Source: an uncultured bacterium (GTDB lineage: Bacteria > Fidelibacterota > Marinisomatia > Marinisomatales > UBA1611). Taken from it: a stretch of 64,000 bases of DNA. Made by a program: the position numbers and the translations under genes. Below, piece by piece: positions 52,100 to 59,424 of the stretch. A model generated the notes under the pieces. The model had not been told where the DNA came from. It did not search any database and saw only the letters and a program-made list of their open reading frames with translations. The stretch is from positions 192,001 to 256,000 of the forward strand of contig CALSPG010000001.1 in NCBI GenBank assembly GCA_943788175.1, in the 5' to 3' direction. The stretch's first letter is position 1; each line of letters opens with the position of its first letter.

Positions 52100-53422
52100 T
52101 TAGTCTAAACCAATAATTGTTGGTTTATTTACGGGCCCAGTTAGTTTTAAGACAATCACAGGTCCTTCTCTGTTTAAATTTTTATCATTCTCTATTTCCC
52201 ATTCTCTTATAATATCTCTTACGCCATATGATATCGGATTAATTCTAATTTCAGTATCAAATAAATCCAATGAACTAAAATCTTTTTTTCTAGTATCAAA
52301 TGAAAATTGCCCACTAATATTAATTTTTAAAAATGGACTATCAAATAATGCTTCAATTATTCCAAATTCATTATCATAAAATCGAAAATTAAAATCTGCT
52401 CTTCTAATACGTAATAAACCATTCCTGGCACCAAGTTCAAGCATTAAGAAGTTTATAGTCTCATCGTTAGTAATAGACGGTGGTATTTTAAACTCAAGGT
52501 TTTTGATTGAAAAATCACCACTGCCATTCTGAAAATTTGGATAGCCTTCCGTATCTAAAACTTGGAAAGATAAATTATTTATATTTAGGATTATATCGTT
52601 TATTTTGAAATTAGTTTGTTCGAAAATATCATTATTAGGGATGGCTGTTACTGACAATCCTTTAAGTGTGAATTTTCCATATTTTTGAAAATACTCAATA
52701 CTAGAACTTTTTGGAGATAAACCAATATTAATATCTGAAAGTAGCGACTGTTCAATTTCATTTATATTAAATCTAAAAGACCAGTTTGTACTGTCTTTAG
52801 GAAAATTATCAGATTCTTTGTTGGTTATTTTTTTCGTTTCCCAGTTTAAAGAAATATATTTTTCTTGTTTTTTGTGGCTTGAAGTTGTTCGCGCATCAAT
52901 ACTAATTGGTAATGACATAGTGTAGTTCCATTCATTATTGCTAAATGGATATTTGTCGGGTCTTATCAAAGACTCGATAACTAAGTCATTATAATTTTTT
53001 GGATATTTTTCATTTTTTTGGAAATAAGCTTCGGTTGCTTTTTCTAAAACTTCAAAAGCATCCATCGGTGTTTCATACCGTTTATCTGAAAGATCAGTTA
53101 ATATTAAGTTGTAAAAATTCGCTAATTTGTAGTTGGTTATTAATTCAAAATGATCAAGCAATAAGCCAGGTCCATTAATCACTATTCCTATTGATTCATC
53201 ATTTATATTTTTTATTGCTATATCATCAAAACCAAATTTTAAAGATTGTATTGAGAGTTGTGCATTCTCAAGGCTGTCTTTTGATATATTAGTAGCTATT
53301 TTAAATTTATTAAGTTGAAAATATAATTGTTCTAATGATGCTGTCGCATCAATATAATTTTGGCTTTTTATACTTTGCCCTATAATTAAGACAATAAAAA
53401 TGCATTTTGTTAAAATTTTCAT
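52100..53422 (-). CDS. Hypothetical exported protein
   Basis: Long ORF; signal-like MKILTKCIFIVLIIGQS from ATG 53422. Confidence 0.6.
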   Translation of the reverse strand: MKILTKCIFIVLIIGQSIKSQNYIDATASLEQLYFQLNKFKIATNISKDSLENAQLSIQSLKFGFDDIAIKNINDESIGIVINGPGLLLDHFELITNYKLANFYNLILTDLSDKRYETPMDAFEVLEKATEAYFQKNEKYPKNYNDLVIESLIRPDKYPFSNNEWNYTMSLPISIDARTTSSHKKQEKYISLNWETKKITNKESDNFPKDSTNWSFRFNINEIEQSLLSDINIGLSPKSSSIEYFQKYGKFTLKGLSVTAIPNNDIFEQTNFKINDIILNINNLSFQVLDTEGYPNFQNGSGDFSIKNLEFKIPPSITNDETINFLMLELGARNGLLRIRRADFNFRFYDNEFGIIEALFDSPFLKINISGQFSFDTRKKDFSSLDLFDTEIRINPISYGVRDIIREWEIENDKNLNREGPVIVLKLTGPVNKPTIIGLD

Positions 53423-53501
53423 ATTTTTATTAATTTGTTGTATACATAATTTATGTAGTGAGTCAATTTGATAAACTATTTTTTTCGAATACTTTAATTT
53501 T

Positions 53502-53831
53502 ATGAAAAAACGACAAAACATTGTGTTCTCTACGGATGAAAATTTTTTTCATGATAAAAATGAATCTATAGAACCTATTAATGTGGCTGCAAATGAACAA
53601 AATCTGAAAATCAGTTTAAAAAGGCTACCTGGTAATAGGATATTAACGATTATTAATGGTTTAAAAGGAGACGCCTTAAGCTTTAATGCTTTATCAAAAG
53701 ATCTTAAAAAGGCTTGTGGTGTCGGCGGATCGGTAAAAAATAGACAAATCTTAATCCAAGGAAATCATAGGGAAAAAATAATAAAAATTTTAGATGAAAG
53801 AGGCTTTAAAGTAAAGGCCAGTGGAGGTTAA
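53502..53831 (+). CDS. yciH: Translation initiation factor SUI1/YciH
   Basis: LKKACGVGGSVK, IQGNHR. Confidence 0.9.
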   Translation: MKKRQNIVFSTDENFFHDKNESIEPINVAANEQNLKISLKRLPGNRILTIINGLKGDALSFNALSKDLKKACGVGGSVKNRQILIQGNHREKIIKILDERGFKVKASGG

Positions 53832-53840
53832 ATTTATAAC

Positions 53841-55013
53841 ATGAAATTTTTTAATTTAATTACATTTATAGTTTTAAGTGTCATGTCATTTTCTTCGTGC
53901 GATAAATCGTTAAAACTATCAAAAATAAAAATGGTGCTAACTGGGAGTGTTCATGGCCAGTTAGATCCTTGTGGCTGAAAGAAAAATCCTCTAGGCGGTC
54001 TGTCTAGAAAATTAATGGTATTAAAAGATATGCGTAAGAATGGTGAAAGCCCTCTAGTTCTTGATGCCGGCGATATGTTCTTTAGTAAAACTAGCATTAA
54101 CATTAATAATATTAAATCAGAGCAGCATAGGTGCGAAACTATGTTAAAAGGCTACGAGAAAATTGGCATTGACGCTCAAAATGTTGGTAAGTATGAACTT
54201 TTAGCTGGGTTATTATATCTGAAAAAAATGGAGAAAAAGTTCAGTAATATTCCATTTATTTCTGCAAATATAAAAAGTGCTGCGACAGGCGAGTTATTAT
54301 TTAAGCCATACCGTGTCGTAAGTAAAGATGGTCTTAACATAGGTGTTTTGGGTTTAACTAATATGGTTCCTGATACGATGCGCTCTGTTGTCATGGATGA
54401 CTACATAAATACAGGAATTAAATACATTAAAGAATTGAAAAATAAAGTTGACCTTATTGTTTTGCTTGTTAATGCAGATAGAACTTCCCAGGCTTCTTTA
54501 TCAAAACATTTTAGCGATGCGGATTTTATTTTTACAAGCGGTAGTACTCATAGAACTAGCTCATCAATGACTCAAAATAAGAATGGTCCTTTTTTATATT
54601 CTAATGGAAAACAAGGTAAATACCTATCGATAATTGATCTTGAGATTAAAAATGTCAAGGGACCCATTGCTGATCTTTCAGCTCCAGAACAAAAAGTAAA
54701 ACAACTTAATAATAGGCTGAAAAGATTGCAGAAAAAAGATCCAAATAGTTCTCTTGAAAAAATTTATGCTGGTAAAGATAATATCTTAAACCTAATCAAA
54801 CGCTATAAAAACGACCTTAAAACAGCAGAAACTGCTATTGAAAATGCTTCAAATAAAATGAGATACACTAGTTTCGCGTTAAATAGAAAAATAAAAGATG
54901 ACCCTGAAATGTTAACAATGGTTAATCTTGCTGTCGAAAAATGTAAATCGTTAGAATTGAATAATAATAGTTTTGAAAAAAGTAATTCTCACGGGCACAA
55001 CCATAGCCATTAA
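53841..55013 (+). CDS. UshA-like (5'-nucleotidase fold) selenoprotein lipoprotein, 390 aa, Sec at codon 46
   Basis: ATG 53841 gives a lipoprotein signal (FSSC), then HGQLDPCG-TGA-KKNPLGGLSRK in frame with the 54015 ORF; SECIS-like hairpin follows. Confidence 0.88.
53990..54008 (+). promoter_or_regulatory. Bacterial SECIS-like hairpin
   Basis: Stem TCTAGGC/GTCTAGA (7 bp, one G-U); loop GGTCT starts with G, 18 nt after the TGA. Confidence 0.75.
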
Positions 55014-55057: not shown

Positions 55058-55543
55058 ATGAACTATTCTAACTCGATCCACCAAGTAGGTATCTTCATAT
55101 TTATATCTTTAATTTTTAGTATTTCTACTAATTTTTTCCGATCTGATTCTATTGATTATATCTCAAAAGGATTTGATAAAGTTGAATCTTTAGATGATTT
55201 AAATTTAAATAGTGAAGAGGGTATTAAAGAGGTTAGTTTAAAAATTGCTCAGGATTTGTTCAAAAAGGAGACACTTTTTATTGATGCTAGAGCTAAAGAA
55301 TATTACCTTGAGGGACATATCCCTGGTGCAATTTGTTTTGATGATTTTGATTCTCTTTCAAATGAAATTGATAATAGGATCCAAAATAATGAATTTTTTG
55401 TAGTTTACTGTAGTGACGATGACTGTGGTTCAAGCGAAGAACTTTCATATCAGTTGCTTGACGAGGGCTTTACAAGTATTTATTTATTTCGAGGCGGTTG
55501 GAAGCTGTGGATAGATAATAAAATGCCTATTGAAAAACCATGA
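55058..55543 (+). CDS. Membrane-anchored rhodanese-domain protein
   Basis: N-terminal TM, FIDAR, GHIPGA, VYCSDDDC, GGW. Confidence 0.85.
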   Translation: MNYSNSIHQVGIFIFISLIFSISTNFFRSDSIDYISKGFDKVESLDDLNLNSEEGIKEVSLKIAQDLFKKETLFIDARAKEYYLEGHIPGAICFDDFDSLSNEIDNRIQNNEFFVVYCSDDDCGSSEELSYQLLDEGFTSIYLFRGGWKLWIDNKMPIEKP

Positions 55544-55991
55544 ATTACTTAAAAAGTTATTCTATATTAATATTAAGAATTATTGTTGGCTCGGTTTTCT
55601 TATGGGCTAGTCTAAGCAAGATCATAGATCCTTCAAAGTTTGCTAGAGAAATTTCAAATTATCATGTTATGCCATTTGGTTTGGAGAATACGTTGCTATC
55701 TTTTTACCATGGTTAGAGTTTTTTATTGGCTCTGCACTCATTCTTGGAATTATGGTTGATGGTTCGGTAATCATATGTGCATCTTTATTAATTATGTTTA
55801 ATTTGCTTGTAGCTCAAGCAATGGTTCGAGGTTTTAACATAGAGTGTGGATGTGGCTTAAAAGAGGGTGAGCTAGTTGGTTTTCAAAAGCTATTTGAAAA
55901 CTTTACCTTTCTAGGATTCTGTGTTTTGATTTATTTTAGAAAAAATAAATTTTTGGAAATATTTCCAAAAACAGAATTGTCTGATAAATAA
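55540..55991 (+). CDS. MauE/DoxX family membrane protein; one-base deletion near 55690
   Basis: ATGA overlap start; LRIIVG.VFLWAS..KI.DP, LPWLE, IECGCG. Confidence 0.8.
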
Positions 55992-56013: not shown

Positions 56014-56086
56014 GCGAGAGTAGCTCAGCTGGTAGAGCATCACCTTGCCAACGTGGATGTCGCGAGTTCGAATCTCGTCTCTCGCT
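56014..56086 (+). tRNA. tRNA-Gly(GCC), CCA not encoded
   Basis: GCGAGAG/CTCTCGC acceptor stem, D-arm, TTGCCAA loop, GTTCGAATC T-arm. Confidence 0.93.
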
Positions 56087-56092
56087 CGCGAT

Positions 56093-57122: not shown

Positions 57123-58750
57123 ATGTCACAATTTAATAAAAATACTTTTTTGTTTTTTCTTTCTCTCCTATTTGTGTTTACAAATTTATATGCTGTTAAT
57201 AAAATTTCTGTTTCAGGGATAGTGGAAGACGTGAATGGCGTGTTGCTTTCAGACGTGTTAATAACTTTAAGTAGGCAAAACAACAGCGCTGTTTCAAATC
57301 GATTCGGTGAGTTTGACCTTGGGCGTATTTCTTCCCAAACGATACAATGTATGTAATGTGTATAGCTGGTTTTCAAAAAAAAGAATTCATGCCTTCATAA
57401 CTAGTATGAAAATAAAGCTATTTCCTAAATCTATTATTCAAGAAAAAATAAATAACGTAAGAAATGGCCAGACGCTGATTATTCCGCCTGGTATTCATTT
57501 TCTTTATCCGGATTTTAATGTGGATAGTACTTTTGGTCTAATTATTAGTAACAAATCAAACGTTACAATCCAAGGATCCGAAAATTCAGAGATAAGATTG
57601 TTGAAAAAGAACGCGGATATTTTTCGTATTTTTAAATCAAATAATATTAATATAAAAAATCTAATTATTAGTTACGATGATTTAGATAAAAGGACAAAGA
57701 ATTTTAATATTTCTAGAAGTCAAGCTGTTGATTTTCCTGATGCTTTAAACTTGGCGAAAAATCATGTATGGTGAAAACTCGGTTTTTAAATATGACGGTA
57801 GTCTTCACCATACAAAAGGTTTTAAAGAACCTTTTATTGAACATCATTTAGCGAATGTCGTCAATATCGTGAATTCAACAAATATAACTTTCGATAGCGT
57901 AACTTTTAGTGCTCATGGGAAAATATGCCTAGCCGGACAAAACTCACGAAATATTTCTATTAATAATTCTGTATTAAATGATGGTATTTATGGAACAGTA
58001 TTAAAAAATTGTCAAAACGTTAGCATTTCAACAATCTCTTATTATCGGATAATGCAGAGTTATATTATTACAATAATAGTACATTGAATTACGTTGATAA
58101 TAAAATTAAAATTTTAGGGTACCATGTTCCAGAACTTATTTTTGTCGAAGGTGGTTCTATAGAGATGCTAGATGAAACTATTATTCCACCACCAAAACCC
58201 ACTTATCTTAGCTCTGAAAGTTTTAAAATGAGTAAGAAAGAAATTACGTTTGATCAATATGACTCTTTTTGTATGGCTACAGATAAGGGTTTGCCCGATG
58301 ACAGTGAGTGGGGCCGTGGGACTAGGCCTGTTATAAACATATCTTATGATGATGCTGAATTGTATTGCAAATGGTTAAGTGACCTTACGGGAAAGAAGTT
58401 CAGGCTACCCAATGTTACTGAATGGGAATTTGCTGCTAGAGGTGGTTTAAAAGGCGGTGATGATTATGCGTATAGCGGCAATAGTTTGTTGGAGCCAGTA
58501 GCTTGGTGTAAATACAATACAAATGGAATGACAGAGCCGGTTGGTTTAAAAATTCCCAATGAACTAGGGTTGTTTGATATGTCTGGAAATGTATTTGAAT
58601 ATTGTAGTTCAACAAATGACAGCATGATTGTTCTGAAAGGTGGATCTTGGGCAAATAGTGGAGTTGGTTGTAGAGTTGCTGACGAAGTTGTAAGCAGTAT
58701 ACACCATTGGGATGATAATATTGGCTTTCAGAATAGTTCAAGGAGACTAG
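57123..58750 (+). CDS. Secreted multidomain protein (carboxypeptidase-regulatory-like, beta-helix, FGE-sulfatase domain); multiple indels
   Basis: Consecutive ORF fragments; RLPNVTEWEFAARGG, PNELGLFDMSGNV, DNIGF(R); likely stop TAG 58748-58750. Confidence 0.65.
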
Positions 58751-58752
58751 GC

Positions 58753-59424
58753 ATTAGAAATCTAATTATAATTGTTCTAATTAAGCTTTTGTTATTAATT
58801 GATTGTCTTCAAGCAAATCTTCCATTAGGATTTGTATACCTTGATTCAATTATCCCAACAGTAAAAATTGATTTAAAGTACTTCGGTAAAGAGAATTTTA
58901 CAGGTACTAATATTAATGGATATGATTCAAATAGGTGTATTATATCAAAAGACGCTGCTTTTGCATTAAAAAATGTACAAAGTGATTTAGGTCACTTTAA
59001 CTATGGTTTGAAGGTTTTTGACGCATATAGGCCACAAAGAGCAGTTGACCATTTTGTAAAATGGGCTAGAAATAATAATCAAAAAATGAAAAGTGTTCAT
59101 TATCCAAATGTGAATAAGAAAAATTTATTTAAGGAAGGATATATTGCTTCTAAGTCAGGTCATTCAAGGGGTAGCACGGTAGATTTAACTATAATTGATT
59201 TTGAAACAGGGTTAGAACTAGATATGGGTACATGTTACGATTTTTTTGGTGAAGAATCATGGATCACATTTGAGAATATCAATGTAGTTCAAAAACAAAA
59301 CCGCCTACTTCTTCAATCGGTTATGAAAAAATATGGTTTTAAGCCTTTAAAGGCCGAATGGTGGCATTTTACGTTACATATTGAGCCTTTTCCCAATAAA
59401 TATTTTAATTTTAAGATTATTTAA
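58753..59424 (+). CDS. ddpX: D-alanyl-D-alanine dipeptidase (M15D, VanX/DdpX-like)
   Basis: DAYRPQ, SGHSRGSTVDLT, EWWHF; signal peptide begins at ATT after AAGGAG. Confidence 0.8.
   Translation: MRNLIIIVLIKLLLLIDCLQANLPLGFVYLDSIIPTVKIDLKYFGKENFTGTNINGYDSNRCIISKDAAFALKNVQSDLGHFNYGLKVFDAYRPQRAVDHFVKWARNNNQKMKSVHYPNVNKKNLFKEGYIASKSGHSRGSTVDLTIIDFETGLELDMGTCYDFFGEESWITFENINVVQKQNRLLLQSVMKKYGFKPLKAEWWHFTLHIEPFPNKYFNFKII

Follow-up and report, generated by a model that had tools for sequence, protein, structure and literature searches.

Does the TGA that breaks an otherwise continuous reading frame in an uncultured bacterium end a short peptide, or is it read through as selenocysteine (Sec, U)? 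The frame occupies positions 53841 to 55013 of a 64,000-nucleotide stretch of DNA, here called the window (GenBank assembly GCA_943788175.1, contig CALSPG010000001.1, forward-strand positions 192,001 to 256,000), from a member of the Marinisomatales in the phylum Marinimicrobia/SAR406 (Fidelibacterota in the GTDB lineage). A preliminary description, made by a model from the letters of the window alone, had proposed a hidden selenoprotein here, a lipoprotein resembling the 5'-nucleotidase UshA with a Cys-Gly-Sec (C-G-U) loop and a hairpin behind it. We find that UGA46 is very probably read as selenocysteine within one exported protein of 390 residues. That degree of confidence attaches to the identity of the selenoprotein and not to the redox relay that we tentatively propose for it below.

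The open reading frame (ORF) delivered by gene callers, 54015-55013, lies in the same frame as an upstream ATG at 53841-53843, and translation from that ATG bore out what had been claimed for it: 390 residues, exactly one in-frame TGA (53976-53978) and a TAA stop at 55011-55013. Residues 1-20, MKFFNLITFIVLSVMSFSSC, end in Cys20. Residues 34-45 read TGSVHGQLDPCG, codon 46 is the TGA, and KKNPLGGLSRK continues in frame. In 28 of the 28 related loci listed, a Cys follows immediately upon the hydrophobic stretch (WSC, FSC, TSC, WNC and similar), and by this conserved Cys the selenoprotein is probably an exported lipoprotein, as judged from sequence. Of the lipoprotein signal FSS-C20 named in the preliminary description, the Cys after the hydrophobic stretch is conserved, while residues -1 to -3 (F-S-S here, L-W-S or W-N elsewhere) are atypical by comparison with a classical lipobox.

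The TGA itself is strongly conserved. A search of 61 related genomes gave 61 matches at E <= 2.8e-59, 59 of which hold the one TGA; the two exceptions are a C-G-C form (genome G047) and a fragment that begins at residue 107 and has no N-terminus. Across the phylum, the family model found a match in 292 of 301 sampled genomes, and among the 150 matches listed 148 have the TGA while the two stop-free ones read E-P-C-G-C. Because nearly all sampled genomes of the phylum match, almost always with TGA, selenium supply bears on the role of this envelope protein. At the DNA level the motif D-P-C-G-TGA was recovered in 60 distinct stretches from related loci, drawn from many independent assemblies, and in every one of them C-G-TGA is followed by a basic residue and GGL. 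C-G-C stands at the Sec column in loci L049, L112 and L113. The prediction that homologues would carry C-G-C or C-G-U at this column held, with TGA or Cys found there.

Public protein entries give a distorted view of this column. An exhaustive profile search of protein library representatives returned 156 proteins at E <= 1e-30, and in the best 150 of these the column reads C-G-W in 16 full-length entries, P0127 and P0143 among them, and C-G-C in 17, with a few reading C-x-C with a different middle residue. Where public full-length entries extend over the column, 15 of 15 likewise show Trp at the Sec position (for example P0002, P0003 and P0011). These Trp entries are evidently mistranslated TGA codons and not natural Trp variants, callers having read TGA as Trp on short contigs; P0011, for instance, comes from L020, a locus with TGA at this codon. 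The claim that standard callers truncate the protein was likewise upheld, with only 23 of the 120 relatives listed covering at least 95% of the query. For annotation this means that SAR406 genomes and marine metagenomes usually miss the first 50-60 residues, with the signal peptide and the Cys-x-Sec motif, or show Trp in place of Sec.

The codon is also stable in independent data. Twenty public runs from 12 studies contain the stretch, and the contigs of two DNA and two RNA-library runs, from four studies, show the TGA unchanged at 53976-53978 and no difference in the hairpin (contigs within an RNA library being no proof of transcription). Elsewhere in the genome TGA is an ordinary stop, as had been stated: among the 970 open frames that are 300 or more codons long it terminates 172 (TAA 591, TAG 207) and also the neighbouring rhodanese gene, and the Trp in GGWKLW is encoded by TGG, with no reassignment of the code.

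Several observations concern copies and variants of the gene. Two copies, each with its own in-frame TGA, are present in genomes G027, G035, G009, G014, G025, G019 and G036, and a paralogue in G029 (L067) has neither Cys nor Sec at the column (K-P-Y-K-V). In the C-G-C protein of G047 the signal peptide is of the plain type, and the lipobox Cys is missing. This genome belongs to genus g26 (G047, G093, G125, G132 and G225), whose genomes measure 0.9-1.1 Mb and are 95-99% complete, with selA over the cut-off in none of the five. The idea that Cys forms mark the loss of the selenocysteine machinery held only in part, since G089 and G201 have C-G-C yet keep selA. Locus L112 (G089:C40), one of the C-G-C forms, retains GGCGGTCTT after its Cys codon, resembling a leftover core of the recoding hairpin, in a genome that retains selA, and may represent a recent change from Sec to Cys.

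The hairpin that follows the TGA most likely acts as a selenocysteine insertion sequence (SECIS), which would recruit SelB and the Sec-tRNA with anticodon UCA to decode UGA46; its GGUCU loop is invariant. It had been described as a 7-bp hairpin with a G-first loop lying 18 nt downstream; hairpin and loop were found as described, with the correction that the 18 nt lead up to the loop and that 11 nt separate the TGA from the stem. For bacterial SECIS elements the range given for the distance from UGA to loop is 16-37 nt (PMC10778597), which includes the 18 nt found here.

The comparison of the 60 distinct sequences bore out the expected SECIS as a conserved and covarying structure. All 60 share the core GGCGGTCT (GGC GGU CU) without change, and 59 of the 60 also have the G that follows and completes CUG, although Gly is encoded by GGC in 15% of cases and Leu by CUG in 4% across this genome. 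Over the alignment, 84.8% of the stem cells are paired, against 25-50% when the partner strand is slid by one to three columns. The pair at columns 27 and 39 joins two third codon positions, one of Leu and one of Ser, and these two synonymous sites show six pair types (GC 30, AU 14, GU 6, CG 5, UA 2 and UG 2, with one unpaired). The covariation score of 0.258 compares with 0.129 in shuffled alignments and was reached by none of 500 shuffles. The residues GGL persist, encoded by other codons, in two of the three Cys forms and in one paralogue that has no Cys. The same hairpin, at the same 11-nt spacing, follows the TGA in three genes of the longer haem-bearing form of the family (L114-L116), from unrelated metagenomes. 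Genome-wide, hairpins with a GGTCT loop occur after a TGA at 17 places, and only at the selenoprotein gene does one have a 7-bp stem in the right setting. The minimal SECIS of E. coli fdhF is likewise a short hairpin that begins 11 nt past its UGA and has GGUC within a G-rich loop; the window hairpin differs from it in a conserved stem of only 4-6 bp and in having no evident bulged U.

Three results speak against the hairpin. Folded alone, it has a free energy of -8.2 kcal/mol and a z-score of -0.29, and 74 of 200 shuffled sequences fold as well, which is no better than chance; its significance comes only from the comparison. In 38 of the 60 sequences the two bases at the foot of the stem, its outermost pair, do not pair, which leaves the 4-6 bp mentioned above. 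Finally, a permissive Rfam search of positions 53800-54200 found no SECIS family, the one hit being a chance microRNA match at E 6.9.

Is the genome equipped to insert selenocysteine? The genome to which the window belongs (G000; 2.27 Mb, 92% complete) encodes all the parts that the preliminary description had named, each above its cut-off: selD (396 bits), selA (467 bits) with selB adjacent to it (316 bits), and a tRNA-Sec (57.3 bits) with the anticodon UCA. The selD gene of this genome (G000:C7:396580-397506, minus strand, locus L001) has an in-frame TGA of its own, in HGAG-U-ACK. The hairpins used by selD are unlike that of the UshA-like gene; one example is CCCAG-GUU-CUGGG, about 30 nt downstream.

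Which selenoprotein is it? The best NCBIfam match is NF041198 'UshA_like_PCGU', an equivalog model of 519 positions with a cut-off of 275 bits, which the window protein matches at 212.9 bits (residues 9-377, profile positions 3-387). The P-C-G-U motif of the family is present and the C-terminal part of the profile (about 390-519) is not matched. Long forms of the family score 499-566 bits and carry four CxxCH motifs in a C-terminal domain, with neither a His tail nor GNHE; short-form relatives of the window protein score 170-199 bits, and only one of the 301 Marinimicrobia genomes has a match over the cut-off. The translation of 390 residues contains no CxxCH motif, and profile positions beyond 387 correspond to the cytochrome domain of the long forms. 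Since the match ends at position 387 and stays below the cut-off, the window protein is well supported as a short, haem-less, His-tailed form of the known selenoprotein family described as UshA-like with Cys-x-Sec. The UshA-like identity given in the preliminary description was therefore right, with the refinement that the protein misses the cut-off of NF041198 and falls in a shorter subfamily without haem. In consequence the NF041198 model would not rescue the short form in annotation, because it scores below the cut-off. Long-form representatives are affected too: at 466-488 residues, all are called from a Met just past the TGA.

With the NF041198 family the window protein shares P-C-G-U, the degenerate 5'-nucleotidase-like domain, a helical region with GKQGK and RLxRLQKKDP-type motifs, and the GGUCU hairpin; it differs in lacking the domain with four CxxCH motifs, in ending in a His-rich tail and in its linkage to rhodanese and MauE genes. 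It does not belong to NF049981, UshA-like (seleno)protein family 2, against which its CxU-bearing sequence scores 43.3 bits where the cut-off is 140; the family motif there is given as CxxU (PMC13188914). A search for longer fused relatives of 684-2000 residues found none, which is weak evidence. A metagenome scan with one long-form protein gave no match, and a second scan, with an alignment as query, gave 80 loci, mostly unrelated multihaem proteins, of which we used the 15 that cover the whole query.

The family as such is already catalogued, as had been said, and has been since 2008; the locus brings no new recoding principle. The entry 'COG0737, UshA-like', with CxU, appears in the Global Ocean Sampling (GOS) marine selenoproteome with 76 Sec sequences from 20 samples and 92 Cys homologues (PMC2398784), and two reviews list the UshA-like CxU family again (PMC9312934, PMC13188914). 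The GOS family resembles the window protein in its homology to UshA and other 5'-nucleotidases, its Cys-x-Sec, a bacterial SECIS after the TGA and its marine origin (PMC2398784), and there is no difference in kind; the portions of these papers available to us give no architecture, taxon or gene context.

Homology to UshA is supported by sequence and structure. The NCBIfam model PRK09558 (UshA) matches at E 9.9e-17 and a profile search of Protein Data Bank (PDB) sequences finds UshA at E 7e-15. An AlphaFold2 model of the selenoprotein (mean predicted local distance difference test, pLDDT, 80.5; predicted TM-score, pTM, 0.80) has as its best Foldseek match E. coli UshA (PDB 1USH and 1OIE), at E 4.6e-17 and TMq 0.59 over about 400 aligned columns with an identity of 17-18%. 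The metal-binding and catalytic ligands of UshA lie in D-x-H, GD, GNHE and further motifs. Motif I, D-x-H in UshA, reads S-V-H in the window protein, its Asp having become Ser, and in more distant Sec forms its His is R, N or F; GNHE aligns to GKYE. Neither the Pfam metallophosphatase domain nor the 5'-nucleotidase C-terminal domain is found in the window protein at E <= 1. The invariant features are the P-C-G-U/C loop, one Asp (in LDAG), S-A-N, GKQGK and a basic helix; one Asp of the old metal site is invariant in both the short and the long form (D75 in alignment A1, D26 in A5). Comparison thus shows that the UshA fold is kept and the two-metal phosphatase site is dismantled, and because of this loss the selenoprotein is probably not a phosphoesterase. 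With E. coli UshA, a periplasmic 5'-nucleotidase and UDP-sugar hydrolase, it shares the overall fold and the export to the envelope; it differs from it in the Sec-containing loop and in GKYE for GNHE.

The neighbouring genes suggest a different chemistry. The selenoprotein gene begins 9 nt after a SUI1-type gene and is followed by a gene for a membrane-anchored rhodanese-like protein, whose C118 and C123 are both invariant in 24 sequences, and by a gene for a MauE-family membrane protein, the start of which overlaps the rhodanese stop (ATGA). Among 29 loci from distinct related genomes (L020-L048), the SUI1 gene lies upstream in 27, the rhodanese gene downstream in 27 and the MauE gene downstream in 26; 41 further loci overlap the same genomes and were left out of this count. 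In the assembly the MauE gene is frameshifted near 55691 by a missing base. It is an intact single frame in eight relatives, and an extra A at 55691/55692 is present in the contigs of all four public runs compared; the frameshift is probably an assembly error or a strain-specific lesion.

We propose, as a tentative mechanism, that the Cys44-Gly-Sec46 loop, just after the first beta strand, may be a reactive centre that cycles between the selenol/thiol and the selenenylsulfide. Electron or chalcogen transfer is favoured over hydrolysis because the long form is fused to a four-haem domain and the short form has conserved envelope neighbours with Cys pairs. The long form would send its electrons through the tetrahaem cytochrome c domain fused to it. 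For the short form the partners would be the downstream two-Cys rhodanese-like protein with its membrane anchor and the MauE protein with its CGC motif, the three together forming an envelope thiol/selenol relay. It is conceivable, on the same tentative footing, that this relay of short-form selenoprotein, anchored rhodanese and MauE is an undescribed system kept across the Marinimicrobia (SAR406), in which Cys-x-Sec has replaced the two metal ions of the ancestor, with the tetrahaem wiring used in other phyla. The arrangement resembles the disulfide relays of the DsbB/DsbA and MauE types in having a small polytopic Cys membrane protein beside exported Cys-pair proteins; it differs in that the window module has no thioredoxin-fold partner and offers a rhodanese-like domain and a Cys-x-Sec pseudo-phosphatase instead. 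We found no paper on a MauE-rhodanese-selenoprotein module in the literature searched, supplements lying outside that search, and none by title on this selenoprotein in Marinimicrobia. With the rhodanese/MauE linkage and the haem fusion of the long form, the candidate functions come down to redox or chalcogen chemistry in the envelope, and the relay, if true, would be the first testable function for one of the sea's more abundant orphan selenoproteins.

Complex prediction was applied to the selenoprotein and the rhodanese domain. The pair scored 0.33, the best of three controls reaching 0.01, with runs agreeing in at least 48% of contacts and a partner pLDDT of at least 77, which gives weak support to an interaction. 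Of 80 solved complexes 58 attain the pass mark used, as do 2 of 110 mismatched pairs, and passes at or below 0.60 comprise only 7 of the 80 solved complexes together with both passing mismatches.

A number of findings weigh against the relay. At 0.33 the score falls within a range in which passes are wrong more often than right, except where the pairing was probable to begin with, and the sequence used as input was a database entry with Trp at the Sec site. Of the two loci without a rhodanese gene one is at a contig edge, and the other (L024, also seen as L073) has none within about 4 kb downstream. The MauE frameshift in this assembly counts here as well, though the other four runs are intact. 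The Cys form of G047 has other neighbours, and Cys forms occur in the selA-keeping genomes G089 and G201. Hidden Markov models (HMMs) of the rhodanese and MauE proteins, built from Marinimicrobia sequences, gave no match at 15 long-form loci, where divergence could hide relatives, and at three Sec long-form loci a Pfam analysis of ten neighbouring ORFs returned housekeeping families only. Two further points weigh against the selenoprotein reading itself and not against the relay. In the literature, as far as the sources were seen, we found no protein-level evidence of selenium for any member of the family, and the C-G-U loop has a pLDDT below 50 in the AlphaFold2 model, so that its placement relative to the old active site is not fixed.

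The same neighbours could instead point to sulfur or selenium transfer, a less likely course in which persulfide or perselenide loading by the rhodanese would supply a chalcogen that the UshA-like protein, as a relative of the thiosulfohydrolase SoxB, accepts or processes on C-G-U; its role would be chalcogen trafficking and not electron relay alone. SoxB (TIGR04486) is indeed the third-best NCBIfam match at E 1.1e-15 and recurs for the relatives, the rhodanese gene follows in 27 of the 29 loci, and the long forms carry haems, as do many sulfur-cycle enzymes. However, the SoxB score of 57 bits is far under the cut-off of 550, the window protein has lost the dimetal site on which SoxB relies, and no sox genes were seen in the annotated flanks. 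The C-x4-C loop of the rhodanese, with its two invariant Cys, also appears more dithiol-like than a standard persulfide carrier.

More improbable still is a soft-metal lipoprotein of the envelope, with Cu(I), Hg, Zn or Ni bound by its C-G-U and His tail for chaperoning, detoxification or sensing. On general chemical grounds Cys-x-Sec would bind soft metals strongly; the short forms conserve an HxHxH-type tail, with H386 invariant in alignment A4, and the Asp left from the old metal site (D75, D26) is still invariant in both forms. The long form, however, has no His tail and has four haems, which points to electron transfer; the flanks hold no metal-resistance or transporter genes, and the tail is modelled as disordered (pLDDT below 50).

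The two remaining alternatives deny the selenocysteine itself. It is very improbable that the TGA is a true stop, dividing the locus into a 45-residue lipopeptide and a separate protein of 332 residues from the ATG at 54015. Standard callers do yield that ORF, most public entries follow them, and the window hairpin is not significant on its own; but the 12 codons between the TGA and this ATG, encoding KKNPLGGLSRK, are conserved in frame as protein, the Cys forms read straight through the column, the hairpin is constrained at synonymous sites, and the 332-residue product would lose the signal peptide and the first beta strand. That the TGA reflects faulty sequencing or assembly, a lesion in a pseudogene or a codon reassigned to Trp or Gly can hardly be credited, for all the Trp in those 15 public entries and the likely one-base error nearby in MauE, when the same TGA recurs in the 60 distinct sequences and in contigs of four runs, each from a study of its own, when TGA closes 172 of 970 long frames, and when it is replaced in natural homologues by Cys and never by sense-encoded Trp or Gly. 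We therefore retain the reading of UGA46 as selenocysteine, and the features on which it bears are collected in Table 1.

Table 1. Position of the selenoprotein gene, its signals and its neighbours in the window
Feature	Coordinates	Strand	Basis
SUI1/YciH-type gene, upstream	53502..53831	+	Pfam SUI1, E 2e-17
Ribosome-binding site GGAGG, 13 nt ahead of the ATG, inside the end of the SUI1 gene	53823..53827	+	Sequence
Full coding sequence of the UshA-like selenoprotein, short form, 390 residues, TAA stop included	53841..55013	+	Translation with TGA read as U
Signal peptide ending at Cys20, probable lipobox FSS-C	53841..53900	+	Hydrophobic stretch followed by Cys; lipoprotein status inferred
Cys44-Gly45-Sec46 (TGT GGC TGA), within D-P-C-G-U at residues 42-46	53970..53978	+	DNA read and related loci
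SECIS-type hairpin UCUAGGC / GGUCU / GUCUAGA (arms 53990-53996 and 54002-54008, loop 53997-54001)	53990..54008	+	Fold and 60-sequence comparison
His-rich C-terminal tail HGHNHSH	54987..55010	+	HxHxH-type tail in relatives of alignment A1; H386 invariant in A4
Rhodanese-like gene, N-terminal membrane anchor, C118 and C123 (YCSDDDCG)	55058..55543	+	Pfam Rhodanese, E 6.7e-15
MauE-family membrane protein gene, ECGCG motif	55540..55991	+	Pfam MauE matches two ORFs

The string of genes ends directly after MauE with a tRNA-Gly (anticodon GCC) at 56014-56087 on the plus strand. On its other side, an ORF of 473 residues at 52100-53521 on the minus strand belongs to no Pfam family; of 70 related loci, counted over overlapping locus sets, 53 have relatives of it on the upstream side of SUI1. 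Further downstream, an ORF of 446 residues at 58084-59424 on the plus strand combines an FGE-sulfatase-type domain (residues 15-201) with a D-Ala-D-Ala dipeptidase M15 domain (residues 249-444), an unusual pairing.

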